A DNA stretch of 64,000 nucleotides from Sarea resinae (taxonomy: Eukaryota), in assembly GCA_026026165.1 (NCBI GenBank), contig JAPEUD010000005.1, positions 124,001 through 188,000 on the forward strand. The letters are read 5' to 3'. The translations under genes were made by a program, and so were the position numbers. Each line of letters starts with the position of its first letter. Within the stretch, counting starts at the first letter, position 1. Positions 25,765 through 40,817 of the stretch are shown here, piece by piece. The notes beneath the pieces were generated by a model. That model was not told the origin of the DNA. It ran no database searches and saw nothing but the letters and a program-made list of their open reading frames with translations.

Positions 25765-26775
25765 TCAGAGCTTCGCCTTTGGTGAACCGTCATCTCCAGC
25801 AGCCAATCGTCTCGGGACCACCACGGCCAAACCCTCTCCTACACCCTCAGTCCGAATCTCGACCTCTTGGCAATCCTCGTCGCCCACGCCATTGGCGAAT
25901 TGCACCACGACAAAGTCGATCTTCTCTCGCCCCAGCACTACCATCGGCGCGTGCCAGGTCCCCGGCCCATACGTCACAGCCTGTGAACCGCGCGCAAGAA
26001 ACGCTCGGGCATTGGCCAGGTCGGGCAAGCCGGGGCCTTTGGCTGCCGCTGCTGCTGCTGAGGTGCTGTGCTCGTGCGGAGTGGGCGGCTCGGCGGAATT
26101 GGTGAAAGGCGATGGGCGGGCAGACGAGAAGATGTCTTTGAGACTGCGTCTCCGTTTCCGGGGTTGTGGGACCGGGTAGGGTGGGGGTCTGTTGCTGCTG
26201 CTACTACTACTACTCCACGAGGCAGAGGCAGAGGCTTGCTTTGAGATCGGGAGCGTGGGCGCCACGATGACCAGATAGCTCGTCTCGTTGTCTCGAGCGG
26301 CCAGACCGACCGGGATGAATGTTTGCGAGGTGAAGGGATGTCGCTCGAGGATTCTGACGTCAAACAGTCCCTCGATGTCGTCGTCTCTTCCAGTAGACCC
26401 TCTGGCTTTTCCACTTTCGTCTTGTAAGGACAATGACGGTGGACTGGTATCCGGTCTCAGCTCCCGCGGCGCGCACACGAACATGTTCATGACCGCCTTC
26501 CCGCGCTGCCCACTTGATGCCGCCCCATACAGATCTGCCATCTGCGTCACGTCGACATACTTCAGGGCCGTGCCTTGATTCGCTGATACTGCCACGGGAG
26601 ATGTCGAGGAGGAGGGTGCGTTTCTGCTGGCTGCGACGCTCTGGTGTGGGGATTGGGGGTGCGTGGATGACGAGCGGCCAGGATTCTCGATGACGGTGCC
26701 AAAGGGCGCAAAGGAGGATTGTGTGAGAGGCTCGATGGGGATTCGGAGCGAAGGACTGGGAATCGAGGGAGCCAT
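25765..26775 (-). CDS. DAL3: Ureidoglycolate lyase/hydrolase with C-terminal PTS1-like AKL
   Basis: IEPLTQSSFAPFGTVI, SANQGTALKY, ILERHPFTSQTFIP, YLVIVAP and QAVTYGPGTWHAPMVV are typical DAL3/AllA motifs. Confidence 0.92.
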   Translation of the reverse strand: MAPSIPSPSLRIPIEPLTQSSFAPFGTVIENPGRSSSTHPQSPHQSVAASRNAPSSSTSPVAVSANQGTALKYVDVTQMADLYGAASSGQRGKAVMNMFVCAPRELRPDTSPPSLSLQDESGKARGSTGRDDDIEGLFDVRILERHPFTSQTFIPVGLAARDNETSYLVIVAPTLPISKQASASASWSSSSSSSNRPPPYPVPQPRKRRRSLKDIFSSARPSPFTNSAEPPTPHEHSTSAAAAAAKGPGLPDLANARAFLARGSQAVTYGPGTWHAPMVVLGREKIDFVVVQFANGVGDEDCQEVEIRTEGVGEGLAVVVPRRLAAGDDGSPKAKL

Positions 26776-27040
26776 CGTTTACGCGTAGTTGTAAGTGTGC
26801 CCACGCTCTATTTGGAAGCCTTTTTGTTGATTGCTGGTGTCATAGTTTGGCTAACACCAAGCCGACTTGAGGGGTACTACCTGTACCCGGGATACAATTA
26901 GATGTCTGAATTATCAAAGATAAGATAAAACACACGTAAGGACAAATAAAAAGTTCTCTTCAGAGTAATTAATTCCTGCTAATGTCATTAAAAGCATCGT
27001 GAGCAAAAGAATCTCCTAGCAAAAAGAACAGAAAAGAAAT

Positions 27041-27131
27041 TGACCAAGGGGAGGTTCGAACTCCCGACCTTCTGCGTGTACAGGTTGTTACGCTGTTAAG
27101 CAGACGTTATGACCAACTAAACCACCCGGCC
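27041..27131 (-). tRNA. tRNA-Val(AAC) with 17-nt intron (copy 1)
   Basis: GGCCGGG-TG-GTTTAGTTGGTCATAAC-G-TCTGC-TT-AAC-A-[GCGTAACAACCTGTACA]-C-GCAGA-AGGTC-GGGAG-TTCGAAC-CTCCC-CTTGGTC-A, followed by T-rich terminator. Confidence 0.93.
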
Positions 27132-28334
27132 GTTCTTGTTAAGAATTTAGTCTTAAAAATCATATATATCAATTTTCATATAATTTGTTACCAGTGAAAT
27201 AGGCGTGGCACCTACCTTATGGTGCAGGAGTCTGCGTACGATTATTAGGTTAAACTGTACTTTCGCGCCTGATTCGGCACGTCGGCTCCGGATCTATTAG
27301 ATCCATGGCTTTCGTCGATTATTATATGTGACCACGGAGCCGTTCTCAGCCTTTGGTCGGTAAGGTACTTGTCATTCTTTACGCCCGGAGAAAGACTGGC
27401 GGTATGGATAGGTAAGATGTGGCGGTTGCGCCTAAGTTTGGCTGCGCATACAGAACAGAAGCAGCAATGTCCCCGCAGCATTCTACATTCTACATTCTAC
27501 ATTGATTACATGCGCCGCACCCATACATTTTGAAACAAGTGATTCCTTTCCTGGTCTTCCGGTCGAATTGATAGTCTCCCCCCAGCCTACAACGATCACG
27601 TTGCGCCGATAAGCAGCATCATGTGATGAGTTGGACCGACTCCGATTTGTTGATGGGACGACACCTTGTCAAGCAAAGCATGTCGCTGGACGACAGGACA
27701 ACCTCGGAATCGCTTGTCTTGAAAGAAGATCTAGAACATACTATTCTATCACGGTATACATACTCAATCATGGCCAGCTACTGACGCGACTACCTAGGTT
27801 TTTAAAGACATGTCTATAAGACCAAGCGATCGGCTGACTTCAAAAGTGATGAAGATAAAAGTATACTAGATAGATATAATATTCAAATATTGAATTCAAT
27901 TCTTAAGATGTTAGAAAAAGAGAAAGTAATGTATAAATATTGGGCCTAGCCGTTAATGTCTTTAAAAGGAAGGAGAAGAGAAAGAAGAAAAAGTAATATT
28001 CAAGATTTCAAATGTCTAGACTAGCTGTTAAGATGTTAGAAGAAAGAGAAGATAGCAAGGCAGAGATCCTAACACTATCGAATACCTTACGTAAGATCAA
28101 GGGCATACATTCCCTAGGATGTTCTAAGCAAATACGCAGTGACTCACTAATCCTGCAGCCAAGCAGGACAGATAGATGTGGCGCAAAACCGTCATTCGTG
28201 AACCAATGGATCTGTGAATAATTCGCGCGATGGAGACGAGAAGTATCGCGCCTATTCCACTGGCAATAGATCAGAGACAAATCTTTATCTATCCTTCATC
28301 TATCTTACTTGTAATCAGATCTTCAACGAACAAA

Positions 28335-28425
28335 GGCCGGGTGGTTTAGTTGGTCATAACGTCTGCTTAACAGCGTAACAACCTGAACACGCAGAAGGTC
28401 GGGAGTTCGAACCTCCCCTTGGTCA
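28335..28425 (+). tRNA. tRNA-Val(AAC) with 17-nt intron (copy 2, inverted relative to copy 1)
   Basis: Identical to copy 1 except one intron base (TGAACA vs TGTACA); oligo-T terminator follows. Confidence 0.93.
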
Positions 28426-28531
28426 ATTTCTTTTTTGTTCTTTTTGCGAGGAGATTCTTTTGCTCACGATGCTTTTAATGACATTAGCAGGAATTAAGTA
28501 CTCTGAAGAGAACTTTTTATTTGTCCTTACG

Positions 28532-28675
28532 TGTTATGGTGCCTCCACGGTTATACCAGCACCACTGGTGGTACTAGGCCCCTGTAGCTTAGCGAGCTAG
28601 CATATCAGCGCGCTCGCTCACTTGGTTTAGGAATCAACCTTCTTACTATTCACTATTCGGACCGGGTTGCTTGCA
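28532..28675. mobile_element. ~144 bp insertion, probable solo LTR (TG...CA) with 5-bp TSD TTACG/TTACA
   Basis: Absent from the paralogous copy (CCTTACG|TGTGTTTT). Reads TTACG-TGTTATGG...GCTTGCA-TTACA-TGTGTTTT. Confidence 0.65.
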
Positions 28676-29503
28676 TTACATGTGTTTTATCTTATCTTTA
28701 ATAATTTAGACATCATTGTATCCTAGGTTTAGTACCCCTTGAGTTAGTCAGTTGTTAGCTAAACTATAACACCAGTAATCAATAAAAAGGCTTTAAAACA
28801 TAGCTTAGACACACTTATAGCTACACTTAATAATTCCCTTAATTCCTAGTCCTTCGCTCTAAATTCCTATCAACTAGCCTTTTGTCAGGAGCGCAGGTAC
28901 AGAGGTACTTGCGCAACGTACCTGTGGGGGCCACCAGAGTACGTAGCTACGTACTGGTAGTAAGTGCCGCGGAACGTGCCGACAGTGCAGTTCCCTACGT
29001 TAGGTGACAACTGCTGCTATATAGTAGGTAAACAGGTATAACTAGCCTAGGGGCTAGTTATAGTAGTCTTTTTGGCTCAGCTAGGTACTGATTTGCCTGT
29101 TTACAGTCCTCACACCTTTGTTAAATGTATTACAGATATGTAGTATTATACACCGCTAGAAGTGTCTAGCTAGTCGACATTGTTACACTATATGTACTAC
29201 TAAGAACTATATCTACAGAATTTAATCCTATTCTTTCTATATTAAATATAAAAATAAGCCCTTTAAGCTATTAGCTATTTAAGATATTAAGATTATTCCT
29301 AGCTTTAATTTATTAAACAATGATGGCTGTAGGTTGCTATAGTAAGGCTCCTCTATTCAAAATAGCCGAAAAGGTACTTCTAGGCATATTTCGATCTGGC
29401 TAGAGACTTCTGTCAGGGCATCATATATACTGTATAATTCACAGAGTGGTCGGCAAGACAGGCGCTTAGTCACAGCGTTGTATAAGGGAACTGTCTTGAT
29501 TGG

Positions 29504-29574
29504 CTGTTTGCAACGACATCTGTTTGCAACGACATCTGTTTGCAACGACATCTGTTTGCAACGACATCTGTTTG
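29504..29574. repeat. 16-bp tandem repeat (CTGTTTGCAACGACAT) x ~4.4
   Basis: Perfect copies at 29504, 29520, 29536 and 29552 plus a partial copy. Confidence 0.95.
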
Positions 29575-29599
29575 TCAGGGGCTGCTCTTGTTCTAGAGC

Positions 29600-30610
29600 A
29601 GCGCAGGGGCAGCTCCCAGATGGCAACGTCAAGGCATCTCCTGTATTGGGAATCCTCCCCATCTCATCAGAGGCGTACTTACATGATGACGATGCTCTAG
29701 ATTGACTTCCAGCGTGGGCGGACTTCAGGCGCTTTAGTGCTTGATTGTATGCGGGGTTTCCATGGATGTGTGCCGGCGTATCAAGAGAATTAAATTTGCC
29801 AAGCCTAAACTTCGTCAGAAAGGGCGCTGTGTGAGGGCCACTATCGTTGGAATACATTGGAACCTGGTGAACAGAGCACCCTCTTTGATTTTCGATTGCT
29901 GCCCTTTGCTGGGGGGTCCCGGTGTTATCAATACTAAATGCATTGAGGATTGTCTAGAGTATCGAGGAAGAGCAATACACCTGCATTGGATGGGGTCAAG
30001 CTTACTATTCCCATGAGCAAGGATGGATTAGAAGCTGATTCAACTCGATGGGAAAATGATCATCGACCTGGTAGCTCTCAAATAGTCCACGAACGAGCAA
30101 ACCCCCAATGTCTCGGTCATGAGAGGGTTGGCTCTCCAAGGAACTTGGCCGCTGTGTGATCTGCTGTCGTGTCTCGGCATTCGTATTGTTTTGAGGCCTA
30201 GTCTGAGCTTGAGCTCATTCAAAAGCAAGCATTACACGGAGAATGCTTCGATTTGGTCGGGATGCCCTTTGATTTGCTTCGTGATACCGGAAACGGGAGA
30301 ACGAATGAGCACAGACCTTGTTCGCTGCAGAACGGCTTGCTTATTCCAAGGACTGATTCGATGATATAGGGCAGTCCAGAAAAGGAACGACGATCACTCT
30401 GAAGATACTGCGACACACCCCATAATGTCTTACGCTAGAATCCAGCCACGAGTCTTATCCGAGGGCGCATTCGCGGCGTGGGTGAAGTCTAGATGAGTGG
30501 TCGGCAACCTGTGTAGACGTTCGTCATCGCCTATCTACCGCTGGGGTGAAGTCTAGATGAATGGCCGGCAAGCAGTGCAAAGGTCCGTCTCGGTGCCCAT
30601 TCACTCACCG
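29600..30610 (-). pseudogene. Degenerate multi-exon gene of unknown function, divergent from the helicase
   Basis: Protein-like segments (SHDRDIGGLLVRGLFESYQVDDHFPIELNQLLIHPCSWE; TILNAFSIDNTGTPQQRAAIENQ...KFRLGKFNSLDTPAHIHGNPAYNQALKRLKS), minus-strand GTGAGT/GTAAGC/GTAAGT donors and in-frame stops. Confidence 0.4.
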
Positions 30611-30701
30611 CCAGGGTTTGCTTATTCTGAAGGGTTGAAGTATTTAAACACCCTTCCTCCACCACATTCTCTCCTCTTTTCTTCTTTTGCTCTGTCGTCC
30701 A

Positions 30702-30847
30702 AGGCCGCACTCGCGGTAAAAGTCTCCTCTCTTTGGCCGCACTCGCGGCAAGAACATCACCCTCTTTGGCTGCACTCGCGGCAAAAACATCACCCTCTTT
30801 GGCTGCACTCGCGGCAAGAACATCACCCTCTTTGGCTGCACTCGCAT
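30702..30847. repeat. 33-bp tandem repeat (GGCTGCACTCGCGGCAAGAACATCACCCTCTTT) x ~4.4 in divergent promoter/5' region
   Basis: Directly visible; shows as an 11-aa periodicity in the ORF track. A related motif recurs at 37329 and 37392. Confidence 0.93.
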
Positions 30848-31417
30848 TAACAAACAATCTCATCGGCTACTCGCAAGAAGGCAATTCTGGTCCGTCTTCT
30901 ACCGAACAGGTACGTTGGTATTCATCATATTGGACCCATTTCATCTCACTCTCACTTCACTCTCACTTCACTCACAACGCTCTTTGTCCAACTCCATTGA
31001 TTGGAAGTGAGTCGTAGCCATTCACTCCGTCCCGGCACACTTCGCTTGTCAAATACAAAACTGTCACCTCTCCCTCTTCCTCTTCCACTTATAAGTTCTC
31101 TTCCACTTCCTCTTCAGCACACACACCCGATCTCTATCCATTCCATCATCTCATTTCATCATCGTCTATCAGACAACCAGATCACATACCTCTTCACATC
31201 TCATAAGGCTCATATCAGACCCTTCCGTCAGAGTAAGTTCAGCATGATTTATTCCTGCTCGATCACTGTCAATGATGCTTCTACTCTTCATGATCAAACA
31301 CGTCATCTCGTTCTCGATCGGATCATGTTCAAGTGACATCTCAATTGTTATCATCATTAGTCTCGAGTTTGTTAGGCTCATCCATCAAAACCTCGCTAAT
31401 ACTATTGAAGCTTCAGT

Positions 31418-34400
31418 ATGGCAGACGACTGGGCACAAGCGGCTCTTGATCCAGCCTGGGGGACAGCTGGCGAGCCTTCCGATACAACCAGTAAGTGATC
31501 TCAACTTTTTTTTCGTTATGCCGCGATGACTAATTTCATCTAGATGCTCCGGCCGCGGAGCCAGACTCCTGGGGTGCAGAAGCCCAGCAAGATGCCGCTC
31601 CCGATGAACTTCAAGGTAATGTCCGCTCATCTTTTGCAGGGCCTCTGATACTAATTCAAGTTTGATTGATTTAGACATCCTTCCCGAATTGAAGTTAAAT
31701 GAGCGCGAGCGCAAACCCCCTTAGGGGCATGGACCGCAAAATGGTTCTGAAGGGCCGCAATCTCGCTATCACTCTTCAAGCTGCGAAAGAAGATGGTACC
31801 TTTGCAGAGCTTGGTGAAGACATTCGCTTGCACCTTCGTTTCAAAGACGGATTGCCGAGAGTTGTCGTTGAGAGCACTCTGAAGGCTGATCCTTCGCCAC
31901 GCAAATTCGCTCTACAGTTCGATCGTTTAGAGAATGTCACCGTCACCAGACAAGCTGTCCTACAGTTTAACGCTCACTTTGGCACGCATTATACCTTCTC
32001 TGAGCCTACACCTGAAGAGAAAGGTAGGCCCGCGTCGCCGCTTGAGTCTACGTTTAGGAGTCGCGATTTCACTTTCTAGACCATCACCACCAACCGGAAA
32101 ATGGTCGATGGCTTTGTCAAGCCCAAATCTGGTCCTAAGCTATCTCACTAGGAGAAGTGGAATCCTCCTTATTGGTTTAACGAAATTCAAATGTGTCACA
32201 ACAATTTCGAGTCCCGTTGTCGAGATTGGGCCCACAACTTCCTCTCTCAGCTTACAGAACAACAAGCAGCAGAGCTTAATAAGAAGACTTCTGAAACGGC
32301 TGTTGTCACTGCCACATTCCACGTTCAGCGCGCCGATCCAACAATCCCTGATGAGGAAGGAGTCACTCAACTCTACGTTTGGTTCCTGACTTTCGTGCGA
32401 CCAAAGGACCTGAAGCTGGTGGTTGGGAATCTGGTCGAAATCGAAGGTAGTGGTCTATTCGATGAAAAAGCTGATTTTTCTGCCCACAGCGAAGCCAGCA
32501 AAGGATAGAAAGGGATCATCGTGAGTCACTAAGTCGAAGAGGATATTCTCAATATGAGGATCCTCAACAAAGTTACCTACGACGCCAAGAAGGCCGGTCA
32601 TGGAACCTTGGACCTTACGCTGAAAGCTGATCTCAATGACTCTGAACACAAGCGAGCTGCAGCGGCTAGGCACCAAGCTTACATGAAGATAGTGCCACTT
32701 GATGTAGCAAAGCGAGAGTCGCGCGGACAGGCATACAGCGACCTCTCTGTCTCACGTCACAACATCAATGTCACGTCTCTCCTCTTCGAAGATAAGGAAC
32801 TCCCAACGTTCGACGAGCCTGTGGTCATCGAAGGGACGGATCTCGCCGACATTCCTCAGAAGGCTCGACCGCTCAATGAGCAGCAAAAAGCTGCACTCCA
32901 GGTGAGAAGGCTTGTATAGCTCTATATTGGCGATTGTTTCACTTACGCGATCAATGCAGGCCGCTTGTTCATCGGCTAGAGGCATGCTGGTCGTCAATAG
33001 GCCTCTGGGAACTAGCAAGTCACAATTTCTGTCCCAGCTAGCTCTCCTGCTCGCGAAGTCAGGCAAACGAGTCCTTATCAGTTCGGTCACGAATGAAGCT
33101 ACAAACGCCATTGCCGCCAAGATTGTCCAGACCGCTGAGGAAGAGGGTGTGAGCTTGCCAGACTTAGTTCGCCTCTAGTCCGACAGTCACATGAAATTGT
33201 CCCTACTACTAGATCGCCAACTTGTCAATGTCAACTCTAGCCTAGAAGATGAAGACGATCCGGCCACTGAATTAATTCTTACAAAGCACAAGCTTATGAA
33301 CAAGAGACTGGCACTCGCCCGCTCGCGACAAACCAAAGATGACATTGAATACCTTCGCCTATTCGATATTATCCGGACCCAGTCTTTCTTTGCCAACGAC
33401 AGAGAAGCAAGAGAGTTCAACCGGTTGACCAAAAATCTGACAAAAGAACTTTACGAAGTTGCTATGATCGTTTGCTCGACAACGGCCGGGGCAAACAATC
33501 TATACCTGGTAGACACATTTGATCCATTTGCAGCATTTTTGGATGAGTCTGCTCACGCCCGGGACGACCAAGCTTTAAATGCCTTTGTATGGTTCCCAAG
33601 GATCCGATTACTCGTATTCGCAGGTGACCCTCGACAGCTCCCACCCTTCCTCTTCAATGAGGGTGCCTGTCAAGGTAATTCTGAGGGCGGGAAATCCATT
33701 CACGAACGCCTCGAAACACAAGGGTTCGTCGGACTTGTCCAACTCTGTGTGCAGCATCGAATGGAGGGGGAGCTAGTCGAGTTTATCAGCGATGAGTTCT
33801 ACCAAGGCTCACTTATCACAGCAGACCACATTCTTGCCGGCCGGCCCTACTTGGCTCTATTGAAAGAACAAGTCCTTAGGAACAAGCCGCCGACCATGCG
33901 CTCAGTGACAATAGATAGTCTCGATCTTTTTTTCAATGTGAAGAACGGCGTTGCGCACCAAGAAGCAGGCGGCTCAACAGTCAACCCAACAGAGACGTCT
34001 GTAACGATTACTATCATCCTTATTCTTATTGACCGCGGCGTCGCGGCTTCGGACATCCTGGTACTGTCAGCTTACGATGCACAACGCTGGGCGATAATTG
34101 AGAAAATACGACGACTAGCCTCAAAAGGATTCTGTTCTCTACTGGACGTGCATATCAGAAACATCGACAGGGCTCAGGGAATAGAAAATAAGGTCGTTCT
34201 GTTCTGCACATCCAAAGCTGACGGCAAAATTGGCTTCTTAGGGCAACCCAACCAGATGAATGTGGCCCTTTCACAGGCCCAATACGCTCGTTTCGTTATA
34301 GGCAGTTGGGACTTCTGGACAAACAATGCCGCCGACACTTCTATCGGTCGCTTCTGTGAGCATATAGAGTACAGTAGAAAGGTCTGCGCTCTGTCTTAGA

Positions 34401-34875
34401 CAGAAGAAGACAAGGCATGGCTCCGAACTCTTAGTAAGGACACCAAGCACCTTACTGTCGGGCCTACCTCTGAGTCTCCCCCCGAACCTACCTCTGACTC
34501 TGAGGCTTCTTTTGGGACCACTTCCGAACACTTTTCTGATCTTGTCTCTGAGTCTACCGAACGTATCAACGAGCCTACCGAGCCTGTTTCTGAGTCTGCT
34601 GTACAGCTTATAGAAAAGCTCACAATCCAACGAAAAGAGAACGAATTAAAGCAAGAGAAGCTCAAACTGGAGCACAATGACCTCGAGAAGCGCATCAAAG
34701 ATGCCGAAGATAATCTTGCCGAGAACCGCAAAGGTAACTAGACAGCCAATGCTAGATATCTTGAGCTAACAGGTGTCCAGCTCCTGCTAGTGCTCCTACT
34801 CCCGCTCATACTCTAACTCCTACTCCTGCTTCAGCCAACGGCCCAGAAAACACCGCATATGAGAAGCTCAATTAG
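31418..34875 (+). pseudogene. Upf1/DNA2/NAM7-like superfamily 1 helicase, RIP-inactivated
   Basis: LNEQQKAA; Walker A VNRPLGTSKS (from GPPGTGKS); VLISSVTNEATNAI; IVCSTT; FLDESAH; FAGDPRQLPP; SIHERL; LCVQHRM...ISDEFYQGSL; STVNPTE; ILVLSAYDAQR; IDRAQGIENKVVLF; IGFL..PNQMNVALSQA (from NRMNVALSRA). In-frame TAG at 32077, 32506, 33176 and 34397; several introns. Confidence 0.88.
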
Positions 34876-34949
34876 TGATGATGGGAAAGAAATTGCCAGC
34901 TTCCTTTGCAAGATGTCTATCTTCAGTGCTGGTTCTATTCCTTTGGCGC

Positions 34950-37073
34950 GTGTTCTTTCATCAGGATTGTTGCATCCCTACATGACGTTGCGTCCGTTTA
35001 CTTTGTATCTAGATCTAGTTGAATGAAATCTCTAATTCGAAAGATTGCTCCTGCAAGCTGTGACAATTCGTTAGAAGAAAGGCTGTGATGTCTGACTAAA
35101 GAGCCCGAGTACCAGTAACATAGAGCGTTTGCAAGCATCTAGACGACCACGGAACAGAAAAAAAGAGCGCCCACTTCTAGCATCTAAAAAGCAATCCCAT
35201 GATCGGTTTGGCTATGGGCGAGCGAGCCGTTGCATCGAGGTAAGCATGTGAGGCACACCACGGTCAATCATCTTTCGCGTGACATGGAGCAGATGCTAGA
35301 AAGACTAGGTTTCCGAGCTTGAAGGTCGTGGTGTGCTTCGATGATATGATCACTATATACGCCGATTGAAGGCACTCATTCCAATCTAAGAAGTTATCGT
35401 ATCACAGGTGGATGCTAGAACCTTTGGGCTAGCTAGAGAACACATAGCCTGAAATTCTCATGAAGGCAGTCATGGGCCTTGGCTCAGAATGCCTCCCCAA
35501 GTACGATTCCAAGGACACTCAACGCTGACCAGCATAGGAGAATGACTAGCAGGGAGCGATACTTTGCGAGCGGCAGGAGAAATTGCAGTGTGTTCATTGC
35601 CTAGAGCTAATAGAACAGGCCGCTCGACTGTCGGAAAGGATAAAGACATTGTATAGAGCGATAGAGATGCAAATAACGTTTGACTACAGAGTACTATAAG
35701 TTGTTTCCAAGGTATGCGCAACTACAATCATGGCCCTTCTTCTTATATTGGATGGAAGTGGCCAGGCCGTGGGTTGTTCTGCGAGGATTAGGAGGTAAAT
35801 GTGGCTGCTGCTAACTCGGAGTGGAAAATTCGATCACTGTAACAGCAAGCAGGGGACATATGGTAACAGCCACACAAACCGATAATTCGTGGCCATGTTC
35901 ATTATGTTCGTTTAGAGCAACAGAGTCTCGTGTAGTGGTGGGTGGAACAGCAGCGTAAAGTGTTGATGCTGTGATGAAGGAAATGTTGAACATCTCGTTC
36001 ATTCTATACGAAGATGATTTTACAGACCCGTCGCACCTGATAGAAACCCTATGGGTCCAGCGTTGGCTAAGCACAGTATGTTGTAGAGAGTAGCCTCATC
36101 TGCGAGGGAGAATAAAATCGACAAATGTCAGACTCTCAGACTCTCGGACGAAAGACTGAGTGGGCATAGTGTTCACTAGGGATGAACTCCGTGGTCTGGA
36201 ACGAAAGGTCTTCATAAAGAAGGGCGCTGGCGCAACCAAGCATTTCACAAATATCAACTTTCAAAGATTCGTTGAGATTCATATTAGCAGACGTACACCT
36301 GTCCACACCGAAGAGCTTCTTCATAGCGTCGCACAAGAAATCGCTGCAACCAAATATCTAGGACAGAATGGAAATCTTGTAATGTGGGATTTGTTGCCGA
36401 GGAGTTTGACGAGTACTTGCGCAAGAAGCTGAATAAGAAGTTGAGCAGCAAGTAATAAGCTTAGAAAAGTTGGAGAATAGTGACAAGAACTAGGGTATGT
36501 TATTACTAGGAAAGCATATACCAGCGGGGGAAGGGCAGTCTGATTTGCACAACGCCAGCAATTGTATCCCTAACACGACTGCACCTGGGAGATCATTAAA
36601 GCCTTGACCGCCCTGCGAAAGTGAAAAGCGAGAATTCTATGTGTCATGGTCGGCATCTGCAAAGCAAGCGTGCACGCTCATGCCGAGAAGGCGGCCCCGG
36701 CCAGTGGACGACATGGGCGAGATCCTGCGATACTGTGATGTCAGAAGAAAGGTGCACTTGGCTGATCGTCCTTTATCTGAACCAGGGGCAGAGTATCGAC
36801 TGAATATGTTAAACAAGATTCTCATTAGCCGCAGTAACGAATTCAATGCTAGGGAATAGAATACACCTTAGATTTGAGCAGAAGTCAGAAACGATCATCG
36901 ATTTCAATACAGTGATCTGCAGATCGTGGTTTCACGACAGTCTTCTTCTTCCCTTTCATGATTAGGAAATATGGCCGATCTAAAGCCTCATTCCCAAAAC
37001 AACATATTCGAGACTCAACATAAAAGTCTCTTTCAGATCCTAAATCTCTTACTGTGTTGTACAGATACAGCAT
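34950..37073 (-). pseudogene. Degenerate coding-like region of unknown function (strand uncertain), probably divergent from the GIY-YIG gene
   Basis: Minus-strand start MLYLYNTVRDLGSERDFYVESRICCFGNEALDRPYFLIMKG..., intron-like GTGTAT...GCTAAT...CAG and fragmented protein-like frames. No family recognised. Confidence 0.3.
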
Positions 37074-37683
37074 CTTGATTTTGACAGAGATAAGTCCTGT
37101 CTAGAAGAGATTATAACGATTTGAGGTGGTCGGTAGTACTTCGTACCTGAGCACCTCACCTGGGCAGATTAACTACCTGTAAGTACCTACGTGAGGAAAG
37201 GGCGTAATAGAAACGTCCGATTCACAGGACCTCCTTCGAGGCCTGTATCGTTTATCGTCGACACAGATCTATTACAACTACTTCTTTAGAACTATAGGCA
37301 ACACTCGTTGCAAGACTCCCTCACTAATGGCCGCACTCGCGGCAAGAAATATCATCTTTGGCAACTCTCGTTGCAAGACTTCCTCACCAACCGCCGCACT
37401 AGCGGTAAGAAGCATGGTATTTTGCATCGTGCTGCTCCATGAGGTAAGCTATAGCCTTTACTTTAATCATCTCGTCTATTGCTTCGAATTTCGCCGGGAA
37501 AGTACGTTCTGCTTCAGGACAGGCCATGACAATATGACTAGCAAGAGCACTGATTCCTCTTTCCGCTCTGCCTAGTTCGTCCTATAAGCGTTTGGTAATT
37601 TCGAACACCAATGTTTTCGTTCAACAATATCTCTCTTCTTATATCCTGCTCCTCGCCAATGTCTTCTATCTATCTTCAGCATC

Positions 37684-39688
37684 ATGTCGAACAAGCAGCT
37701 TACTCTGACAGGGTGGTTGAAAGTGGGGAAACAAATAGAAGAGTAAGTCTCTCTTTGCCTTATGACCTGTGTTCTTAGAACATTATGTCAGTGATGTGGG
37801 ACCGCCTAAACGCTGTTCAAAGTTCTTGAGAGATGTCAAAACCAGTCCAGAATACTAATACTATGCAGACCTTCGGGTGAGCCAGGGATCTCAAAGACAC
37901 TGTCATCCGATGCATCTGCCTCTGCCTCGACAACTAGGCTTCCCCTCCAGAGGTAAGATAATCGCTCTCTAGGCTTTTGCAATTGCTCCTAGACTCGGGC
38001 TAATTGTACATCAGTGTTTCAGATCGTGCCAACCGTCTCGCAGAGACCTCGACAAAACCTAATGGTATTGACAAATACAGCAAGCCTGCTAAAAGGTCCC
38101 GTTCTCAATCTTCAGCCCCTAGTGACACCCGGTCCCCTCGAGCCAAGTTCAGTCGAGCCAAAATCAGCGAGGAATAGAGTCGTCGAAAACGAGAGATTGA
38201 AAGTCGCCTCGTCAATAAAGGGTGGGCAAAAGACGACCTTGGCAACATGTTCTTGTAAGTAATGCAATAAGGCTCAAGCGTTCACATGTCTGACAAGTTG
38301 TAGGACTAGCCGTGATAGTATTGGAGCTATAAAGCTCCCTGCAACAGCATCTCTGCCGCACAACAATGCTCTGCTCGAGAGTGTCGAAATTGTCCATCCG
38401 TTGACGATTGCCCCTGCGTCACAAAGCTGCAATACTTTCTTCGATCAGAGTTTAGTCGAACGCGTACAGAACTGCTTTGATATGTTCCTTTCTCGCGATC
38501 CAACTCACCTTCATGAAGAGACTCTTGACTTAATCAAACATTTCGACCGAGCAGAGCTGGCCTAAAGGGTCATTGCGGGATGGGCTAGTGGTAAGCCAGC
38601 TCATGTGCAGATCTGTTTGGCTTGGTGTTAAACTGCTTGTAGGAGCCGCCTCGCTAGTCGAGATAGGAGCCGGATGGCATTTGCATGCCGCAAATATGCT
38701 CCCTCTTGTTGACTCCTATGAAAAGTACGCCAAGGGTCTGTATCTGCATGTTATTACTGTACAACATGACGAAGGCTCTTCGACTAGAGTCTATAGTGGC
38801 ATGGCTAGTGGCTTTGAAGGATTCCGCCGTCGAATCCTCCAGGTATACACTCTTTCCTTTACCTTTAATTTCATCACTAAAGCTAAGAGTACAGCATGAG
38901 AATCCCGTTTATCGCGCACGTTATAACAACAACTATCACTACAACGTCATGAAAAGTCCAGGCGCGACTTAGAAATGGCTTGTCTTTAGGACCTACACAG
39001 GCCAGCCTCGAGCCCTTATTTTGCTTGCTGAAGCAGTCATGATTGCTCTGTTAGCTTTGTACACCACCGACAGAAATCTTGCTATGCTTCAAAAGTTCAA
39101 AGTGGTCAAGGATCTTCGCATAGGAACAGAGAATCCGTCAATCAGACTGAATATGGACGCCGGTCTACAGTCAGTATATTTGCCAGTCTGATTTTAATAA
39201 ACTCACTTTAGCTTACTTTAAAAAGATACACAGGATTCTCTACAGCATCAGCCCGAGAAACTCGAAATCAGTTCAACAGACAGAGAGCGCTAAACGCTGT
39301 AACCACAGGCATTGTTGTTCCTGTCACGATCAAGGTCAATGGGTCATATCTTCCGACCCTTTTTCGAGAAATCCACTTGAGATTTTACAAGCATCATCTT
39401 AACAGATACCTGCAAGTTGCTGCGTCAAAGTACCTGATTTGTGTCCTAGATCTTACGCTCACTGGAAAGCATGAGCGTCCCTACTATATTATCGGCAACC
39501 AGCATCCGAATCTCCAAAGATTTGGCATCTGGATACAACCTGAACTTAATGATGGTTTCTGGCTCCAGCAATCTCGGCGTCCAAGGCAGAAAGTAGAGGA
39601 ACTTAGAAAGTCTTGTCAGGACATTCTCTAGCAATATGGGCTGGAAGACTTCGATGAAGACTTAGTGAGGGTTGTCAGGATTCGCTAA
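37684..39688 (+). pseudogene. GIY-YIG endonuclease-like protein with N-terminal PIP-box-like motif, multi-exon, RIP-inactivated
   Basis: Spliced translation: MSNKQLTLTGWLK...KGLYLHVITVQHDEGSSTRVYSGMASGFEGFRRRILQ|HENPVYRARYNNNYHYNVM...LILLAEAVMIALL...IRLNMD...LDLTLTGKHERPYY...RFGIWIQ...FWLQ. The GLY...YSG, R..H, E, N order fits GIY-YIG. Introns include 38255-38303, 38590-38642 and 38843-38894. Stops at ~38175, ~38563, ~38969 and 39629. Confidence 0.72.
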
Positions 39689-40014
39689 TACTGACAGAGT
39701 ACTACCGTTAAAGCTATATCAAGAATCGTCTATAGTAGGAAGTATAGAGGAAAGAGATGTTACAGAAGGTTGTTTGAGATTGCTTCAAGTCGCTTCTCTA
39801 TTGTTTACAGCTTAAAAAGACATGTATTACTCTGTCATGACGCTTGCCTCGGTGTGGCTATTTGCAAAATGTGATTGTATAAAAAAAACTTCAAGATACA
39901 AGATTGTTCATGCAGATATAGCATACCGTGAGACTAATTGATATACTAGAGATACCTTAAGGTGAGACAGTCAAATGATTATCTACATTGTGATAGACGT
40001 GCTTAAGATAGTTA

Positions 40015-40270
40015 AAGCCAAGTTAGATCATTAGGGCTGATCAGGTCATAGATGCGCGCCATCAGGCGAGTTAATAGATAGGCTCTATTAAGCCGATAAT
40101 AAGGATGAGGAGGATGAAGGCTGGTGGGCCCTTGAGGGAGACGTAGGCCGGAGCCATGTCGGGTTGGCTTCCTCAAGCCAGGTTAGATCATTAGGGCTGA
40201 TCAGGCCTGGATACGCTCTATCAAGCGGATGAGGGTGAAGGCTGGTGGGCCCTTGTGGGATACGTACGCC
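40015..40270. repeat. Imperfect direct repeat, ~160 bp period, near the island's right end
   Basis: AAGCCARGTTAGATCATTAGGGCTGATCAGG at 40015 and 40175; TGAAGGCTGGTGGGCCCTTG at ~40115 and ~40236. Confidence 0.85.
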
Positions 40271-40732
40271 ATATCTCGCGACGTAGTGATATGAAGAGGA
40301 GAAGTGAGGTTAGGTCGCGGACGCGGATGTTATGCCCGCGGCGTAGCAGTGGCGACATGTCGCATACACTACTAAGTATCAATACGATGTAAAGATAGTG
40401 GTAGAGAAATTGTAACTAATTTAGTAAATAAGAAACTGGTCTATAGAAAGGATAGCTAGTATGCAGGGAAGCACTGAGACAAAGGCATGCGGCTACATTA
40501 GAGACGAGACTGGCACGCGCAAGCAGATGAACAAACAAAAGAGAAGCACTGCACCTAGACCAACAATGCCGGCTAACGCGCCCAAGCGATTTTCCCAGTT
40601 CTACTACGAAGTAAAGGCCAGCCTTTTCGAACTATCACGGCGACCTGCTCCGCCAGTCGACCTTTCTGTCGCGGTTGGCGCCGTGCTTGGCGCCGTGGTT
40701 CCGACCTTCTTTATCGCCTGGCGTGGCGCCAA

Positions 40733-40817
40733 GTCTAGATGGCTATGGCGTCTGCTTAACAGCGTAACAACAACCTGAAAACGCAGAAGGTCGGGAGTTC
40801 GATCCTCCCTTTGGTCA
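40733..40817 (+). pseudogene. 5'-truncated tRNA-Val(AAC) (lacks nt 1-9; a different isodecoder from copies 1 and 2)
   Basis: GTCTAGATGGCTATGGCG-TCTGC-TTAACA-[GCGTAACAACAACCTGAAAA]-CGCAGA-AGGTC-GGGAGTTCGATCCTCCC-TTTGGTCA followed by a T-run. The upstream ...GTGGCGCCAA cannot form the acceptor stem. Confidence 0.85.

Follow-up and report, generated by a model that had tools for sequence, protein, structure and literature searches.

Proteins of the GIY-YIG superfamily are defined by two sequence boxes, a central Arg and a C-terminal Glu, usually with an Asn as well, and the I-TevI catalytic domain (PDB 1ln0), T4 EndoII and the UvrC N-terminal domain share with the nuclease described here two Tyr boxes, the central Arg, and the C-terminal Glu and Asn (PMC1564403, accessible part); they are also among the top fold matches of a homolog of it. 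GIY-YIG endonucleases are found in nuclear mobile DNA as well, in Penelope-like and Tlr elements (accessible parts of PMC1564403 and PMC6431247). Helitrons place a nuclease and an SF1 helicase on one DNA element and leave fragments scattered in mosaics; in the accessible part of PMC6431247, their helicase and a Rep (HUH) domain are joined within a single ORF. Among ascomycete accessory DNA are the Starships, one type of which targets a conserved RNA gene, the 5S rDNA, according to the accessible part of bioRxiv 10.1101/2021.12.13.472469. Slx1 and ANKLE1/COG3680 are nuclear eukaryotic GIY-YIG enzymes linked to fork processing. LINE-1 is a retrotransposon with an APE endonuclease, and its ORF2p, a protein unrelated to the nuclease described here, is reportedly a mobile-element endonuclease with a PIP box.

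Here we analyzed a 64,000-nucleotide stretch of the Sarea resinae genome (the window; contig JAPEUD010000005.1, positions 124,001 to 188,000). Positions 37684-39688 of the window are a real gene in a dead copy. With high confidence, it is a pseudogene that once encoded a GIY-YIG endonuclease of an unnamed ascomycete family and that follows a decayed SF1B helicase gene, both within a 13.6-kb island flanked by tRNA-Val genes (Table 1). The intron-bearing genes of the window are those of a filamentous ascomycete. The island sits between a ureidoglycolate lyase gene and ordinary genes, and its GC content is 41-50% per kb compared with about 50% in the flanks. The only sequencing run found to cover the stretch is its probable source run.

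The nuclease gene consists of seven exons that join into 535 codons in one frame, from an ATG at 37684 to a TAA at 39686-39688, with six GT..AG introns of 49-126 nt each. An earlier note on this DNA had described an intron-rich gene that is seen only after splicing, and its start, stop, quoted motifs and spacings were all confirmed, including KQLTLTGWL at the N-terminus, with Q5 at 37696. In the spliced core, GLY (38735) is followed after 16 residues by YSG (38792) and then by M-A-x5-F-RRRILQ; across the exon junction come H (38895), E (39030) and N (39150), and the last exon reads LDL..H..PY....RFGI...FWL. Both splice junctions within the core are spanned by homologs and borne out by their colinearity, and the fifth intron keeps its donor and acceptor in a second genomic copy on C91 (C numbers denote contigs of the host genome, G000, in which the window lies on C89, and L numbers individual loci). 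A last intron at 39174-39211 was rejected in favor of 39170-39225, since only the latter joins without an insertion relative to the homologs. Exons 1-3 are less well supported than the core exons, and their model draws on splice signals, a frame interrupted once in 187 codons, a relic that spans residues 48-83 and a motif match in the homolog P0006. Alignment of the spliced product to five database proteins takes the model beyond chance, and because the frame holds four nonsense codons, which the earlier note does not mention, this copy is a pseudogene.

Table 1. Coordinates of the nuclease gene, its helicase neighbor and other island features, in window numbering.
Feature	Position	Strand	Evidence or remark
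Intact tRNA-Val(AAC), adjoins ureidoglycolate lyase gene, left island edge	27041..27131	-	
Intact intron-containing tRNA-Val(AAC), within inverted duplication 28329-28871	28335..28425	+	
Solo-LTR-like repeat (TG...CA), 5-bp target duplication CCTTT, unrelated insertion	28883..29114	.	
Five 32-33-bp repeats with 16-bp motif, upstream of helicase	30703..30853	+	Repeat and motif search
Decayed SF1B (Upf1/Sen1/Dna2-like) helicase gene	31418..34741	+	AAA_11 E 2e-18, AAA_12 E 1e-29; 5' exons uncertain
Two 63-bp repeats with 16-bp motif common to helicase upstream region	37297..37422	+	Repeat and motif search
Nuclease exon 1, with PIP-like motif Q5-x-x-L8-x-x-W11-L12 at 37696-37719	37684..37742	+	Canonical motif at equal position in P0006
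Nuclease exon 2, low-complexity linker	37869..37952	+	Splice signals and frame only
Nuclease exon 3, basic linker, internal TAG 38175	38015..38254	+	Relic G000:C57:32578-32695
Nuclease exon 4, helical pre-nuclease region, internal TAA 38563	38304..38590	+	Start of homology
Nuclease exon 5, GLY (Y257), YSG (Y274), R287	38643..38842	+	Homologs; second copy G000:C91:96854-97176
Nuclease exon 6, H291, HY305-306, E336, N376, internal TAG 38970	38895..39169	+	Homologs
Nuclease exon 7, conserved C-terminal domain, internal TAG 39629	39226..39688	+	Relic G000:C67:404650-405059
Nuclease introns	37743-37868, 37953-38014, 38255-38303, 38591-38642, 38843-38894, 39170-39225		GT..AG
Short direct repeats downstream of nuclease, also after C57 relic	40015..40270	+	
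Decayed tRNA-Val(AAC) variant, without three bases at positions 8-10	40728..40817	+	Alignment, 86% to intact gene; anticodon read from sequence

When 1.84 billion cluster representatives were searched with the region of the last three exons in one frame, five proteins matched (E 3e-12 to 3e-4), among them the named Lithohypha guttulata LTR64_007518, whose record is without the GLY box; the close family is sparse. One further homolog came from an alignment search, and a word-index search with one nuclease exon gave no match. In pairwise blastp the spliced nuclease aligns with the five homologs from residue 188-271 onward, at 23-32% identity and E values of 4e-46 to 3e-13. Invariant in all five are Y274, G276, M277, G283, R287, H291, H305, Y306, E336, N376, D378 and G380. 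The conservation expected of the catalytic Tyr, Arg, Glu and Asn therefore holds throughout for Y274, R287, E336 and N376 and in part for Y257 of the GLY box, which is present in three of the five, P0005 and P0006 as annotated being without that segment. Both N-terminal boxes are present in the window nuclease, as GLY and YSG, and with the central Arg and the C-terminal Glu and Asn the residue pattern of the family matches the superfamily definition.

An AlphaFold model was built on the homolog P0002 from five sequences (pLDDT 62). In a wide structural search (VIA), this model ranked the I-TevI catalytic domain first (Z 5.5, rmsd 2.8, 87 of 92 aligned), and seven of the top 12 matches were GIY-YIG proteins (ranks 1, 2, 4, 7, 8, 9 and 12): I-TevI, EndoII, UvrC, a plant glutaredoxin N-domain, PD-T4-3, Eco29kI and HIGLE, where we take ranks 7, 8 and 12 to be members of the family. 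The structural check suggested earlier thus favors the fold in the wide search, with a modest Z of 5.5, lower than the best score that the tool typically gives to models without a match, and came back blank in Foldseek. Since Z alone is weak, the claim of a GIY-YIG fold depends on the agreement between the match list and the residue pattern. Sequence searches of Pfam, NCBIfam, PHROGs and PDB returned nothing significant for the close family. A distant paralog in the same genome aligns with the family over the core and C-terminal domain (236 columns, E 6e-5, probability 66%) and reaches Pfam GIY-YIG at E 0.003, bridging the family to Pfam. An atlas search gave leads only (GIY-YIG-bearing bacterial clusters at 0.86-0.89, Ascomycota clusters at 0.89-0.92), and no relatives were found in the viral and prokaryotic collections. 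Conserved residues, the fold search on the predicted model and the paralog together support the assignment to the GIY-YIG superfamily that had been proposed from the spliced reading.

Unlike I-TevI, EndoII and UvrC, the window nuclease is nuclear, with six spliceosomal introns, a YxGM second box, a helical N-terminal region and an unmatched C-terminal domain, and has neither NUMOD nor a Pfam match. Between Glu and Asn it has about 25 residues more than I-TevI. In contrast to Slx1, it has a C-terminal Asn, no RING and no SLX1_C match, and the true Slx1 is a separate gene on C64; the predicted protein thus supports the earlier view that this is not Slx1. Nor does it match the ankyrin or LEM domains of ANKLE1/COG3680. 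Compared with Penelope-like and Tlr elements, the island lacks a reverse transcriptase or integrase match in the six-frame scan and among its genes, and the accessible part of PMC13159263 deals with Penelope elements, not with the nuclease family here. As read from its sequence, the nuclease is a member of the GIY-YIG superfamily, but it falls outside each named family tested, whether Slx1, Penelope or the organellar homing enzymes.

The consensus of the PIP box is Q-x-x-[I/L]-x-x-F-F (PMC9690074, accessible part). The window motif, QLTLTGWL at residue 5, lies in a first exon of 20 residues and is non-canonical (W-L), and P0006, the sole close homolog with a plausible full N-terminus (six other homolog records start downstream), carries QPNLFQFF, also at residue 5, which fits the consensus. 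A pattern covering both motifs has 2 matches in 29,716 residues of long open frames, a background that overstates the odds since the pattern was chosen after both motifs had been seen. The start can be read in two distant paralogs: the one at C52:213.5 kb has a shorter QSKLGF, and the intact one on C1 has no such motif. The earlier claim of a PIP box is therefore backed by one independent homolog, but does not extend to the intact distant paralog. From these motifs, it appears reasonably likely that the intact nuclease would dock on PCNA through its N-terminus. The host PCNA gene is itself split by an intron. At the other end of the protein, the C-terminal domain that had been called unrecognised is conserved among homologs and without a fold match: structural searches with its model (pLDDT 70) gave a best Z of 2.8 and a blank in Foldseek. 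For a predicted model, such blanks do not show a new fold.

The helicase gene, about 3 kb upstream of the nuclease, has six in-frame TAG/TAA stops in two long exons and a degraded Walker A, RPLGTSKS. Its N-terminal part has no Pfam match, and a word-index homolog search gave none either. Over both genes, all ten internal stops are TAG or TAA, the stops that RIP-type mutation would yield. A 16-bp motif is found in repeats upstream of each gene (Table 1), and six of its seven matches genome-wide lie upstream of the helicase or nuclease here, compared with four matches for a reversed-pattern control. This common upstream motif ties the helicase and nuclease genes together.

The decayed tRNA-Val lies 1.04 kb past the nuclease stop and received no ARAGORN or Rfam call. 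At the left, 28329-28871 is an inverted duplication of 26734-27137, taking in a tRNA-Val gene and the beginning of the gene for ureidoglycolate lyase, with 97% identity near the tRNA and 76%, strongly C-to-T biased, farther out; 29 of 33 transitions in the duplicate run toward A/T. Against RIP, the regional RIP indices are weak, and transitions relative to paralogs go both ways without clear CpA bias. The solo-LTR-like repeat has many genomic copies, five at 93-98% and others weaker. At 29504-29583 a 16-bp unit is repeated in tandem, four to five times, and the 11-mer AAGTCTAGATG occurs at 30485 and 30549, within two repeats that precede the helicase, and at 40731, in the damaged 5' end of the decayed tRNA-Val, which may be chance. 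A six-frame Pfam scan of the island detected no transposase, recombinase, Rep domain or reverse transcriptase, although heavy decay could hide the last of these, and repeat searches at the locus found no terminal repeats, element ends or target duplication for a cassette. An empty site, the allele that a homing endonuclease gene cuts where it inserts, was likewise not found. An island scan of 27132-31402, 34700-37701 and 39690-40801 found no DUF3435 captain, which Starships carry at their 5' end. Whereas Helitrons use a single ORF, here there are two genes, a GIY-YIG nuclease and an Upf1-like helicase (AAA_11/AAA_12), and compared with Starships the island is far smaller and no typical cargo was detected in it. 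By the defining features given in the accessible parts of PMC6431247 and bioRxiv 10.1101/2021.12.13.472469, the cassette, as scanned within the island, fits neither Helitrons nor Starships.

Dispersed relics at 76-90% identity are present on C57, C67, C91 and C97. The C57 locus preserves, over 6 kb and among unrelated relics, one piece each of helicase and nuclease along with the downstream repeat, all in unchanged order and strand. The surrounding region (C57:14001-37200) also contains several relics and open frames of SF1B helicases, a fragment that is presumably a copia-like integrase, and a tRNA-Tyr accompanied by its decayed duplicate; a relaxed tRNA-Val call at the C57 relic proved spurious once the sequence was read. 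Four near-complete genes of the wider nuclease family are found in the genome, most near tRNA genes, and three distant GIY-YIG genes lie at C52:194.5 kb, at C52:213.5 kb and on C1. The first (C52:191600-195527, + strand; L080/L082) pairs a GIY-YIG gene, interrupted by a single TGA, with a different decayed SF1B helicase directly in front of it, and a tRNA-Ser lies 1.3 kb downstream. The second (C52:213548-215658, - strand; L037/L047) is a 430-codon open frame with an early stop near its start, a decayed second copy behind it and an inverted tRNA-Ala pair upstream. Its C-terminal region differs from that of the window nuclease and has no Pfam or PDB match; we take it to resemble uracil-DNA-glycosylase-like domains. 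The C1 gene (C1:160106-162178, - strand; L087) is intact, with 691 codons and a long repeat-bearing insertion within the nuclease domain, and lies among ordinary genes, without a helicase and with tandem tRNA-Gly and tRNA-Ser pairs upstream. A weak match to the C52 nuclease with one stop at C80:125352-125483 (E 0.13) could not be confirmed from its sequence, and a weak nuclease hint at C139 was rejected. The genome also has several accessory SF1B helicases; those on C84:138001-157704 and C123:52001-71704 were set aside as a probable assembly duplicate, identical over 19.7 kb.

A helicase or a piece of one precedes the family nuclease at three of seven genome loci. At the other four a helicase match is absent, one of them (C52:213.5 kb) having only a short DNA piece in common. 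A tRNA gene lies within 9.3 kb at six of the seven (Ser 1.3, Ala 1.8, Tyr 4.4, Gly 5.4, Pro 8.8 and Val 9.3 kb; none at C91), a count in which two loci share one region and tRNA neighborhoods attract many elements. The control had one tRNA gene in 250 kb, from 12 stretches chosen for other reasons rather than at random, and that tRNA itself adjoins a broken helicase piece. Seven metagenome loci, about four of them independent, hold nuclease relatives that are mostly frameshifted or carry catalytic substitutions (R in 5/7, E in 3/5 covered), and no helicase match was found on these short contigs. On one of them (L034:208-3563) a tRNA-His is succeeded by a broken HET-domain gene and, directly after it, a nuclease relic. 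Because the relics sit in jumbles of unrelated fragments, a common insertion hotspot might account for both the adjacency and the tRNA proximity.

The nuclease and helicase probably formed a selfish cassette. That reading is favored by the 16-bp motif, the order and strand on C57, the helicase-nuclease pair on C52, the dispersed relics and the tRNA proximity, and weakened by the missing ends and target duplication, the lack of a transposase, recombinase or Rep domain, and the helicase match missing at four of seven genome loci and on the metagenome loci. The intact C1 paralog, without PIP-like motif or helicase, weakens both the cassette and the PCNA reading. As for how such a cassette might have worked, the two genes would once have been a single selfish unit whose intact nuclease docks on PCNA through its N-terminal motif and moves with the replisome. 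A one-metal GIY-YIG site would nick or cut DNA, and the C-terminal domain may bind DNA or the partner protein. In yeast, forks pause at RNA polymerase III genes, and such pausing would place cuts near tRNA genes irrespective of anticodon. With the helicase unwinding the DNA end at the break, the cassette would then be copied through homology-directed repair by the host, an event whose scars would be duplicated tRNA genes and flanks; copies would later be inactivated by C-to-T mutation of the RIP type. We regard this scheme of a PCNA-docked nuclease cutting at tRNA-paused forks as a serious but tentative proposal, with slightly less than an even chance. The tRNA gene duplicates in the window and on C52, C57 and C1 fit break-and-copy events without proving them. 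A broader form, in which the locus preserves as a fossil a class of fungal DNA elements, so far undescribed, that lack a transposase (a PCNA-riding GIY-YIG endonuclease with an Upf1/Dna2-like helicase, breaking forks at tRNA genes and copied by host repair) and the wider nuclear ascomycete GIY-YIG family its descendants, seems unlikely to us.

The nuclease may instead have been a conflict effector, a genotoxic enzyme (spore killer, non-self or antiviral effector) brought to replicating DNA by PCNA, with the helicase as sensor or partner and both carried passively in repeat-rich islands. Its patchy and often broken copies, the metagenome relic directly after a HET-domain gene, the accessory SF1B helicases of this genome and the failure to find a mobilizing enzyme in the island would all suit such a role. 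However, no antidote gene or drive signature was seen, the HET-domain neighbor is a single case, and an effector role alone does not explain tRNA proximity, so that we consider it rather unlikely. The earlier note had offered a mobilization enzyme or a toxin/drive factor; the context favors a selfish or accessory cassette, the role itself still being inferred. An accessory host repair nuclease, PCNA-bound and structure-specific with Slx1-like working, could also have been duplicated and decayed by chance, its helicase and tRNA neighbors being coincidental in repeat graveyards. This would agree with the PIP-like motif, the intact 691-aa paralog among ordinary genes on C1 and the mosaic context of the relics, but true Slx1 exists separately, close-family copies are mostly broken, the shared upstream motif links the helicase and nuclease genes, and the close family has just 5 representatives in 1.84 billion; we find it distinctly unlikely.

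A tRNA-Val-specific homing endonuclease, cutting the tRNA-Val gene and leaving the direct repeat 28335-28425 / 40728-40817 as the mark of insertion, would account for cargo between two same-strand tRNA-Val copies with about 25 nt of 3' flank in common, for the right copy lacking three bases near its 5' end, and for the 11-mer at the right junction that recurs twice upstream of the helicase. Yet the 28335 copy resembles a later duplication, because it repeats the 27041 gene and the flank of that gene in inverted orientation at 97% identity, and the tRNA-Val call at the C57 relic was spurious. Since related loci adjoin six other tRNA types (Ser, Ala, Gly, Tyr, Pro and His), tRNA-Val as a specific target, an idea raised earlier, is unsupported, and we judge this explanation highly improbable.

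In the open literature, subscription papers being outside our scope, we found no paper on an intron-bearing nuclear ascomycete GIY-YIG family. The window example is a fossil of this unnamed nuclease family, and we offer the selfish-element idea as a hypothesis. Our results point to an intron-bearing nuclear GIY-YIG nuclease family in ascomycetes that is largely missed by Pfam, and the intact C1 gene is the best local assay candidate for its wider membership. If the family cuts at replication forks, duplications and accessory DNA in fungi would have a source that has so far gone unrecognised, and the family would also provide a new nuclease scaffold.
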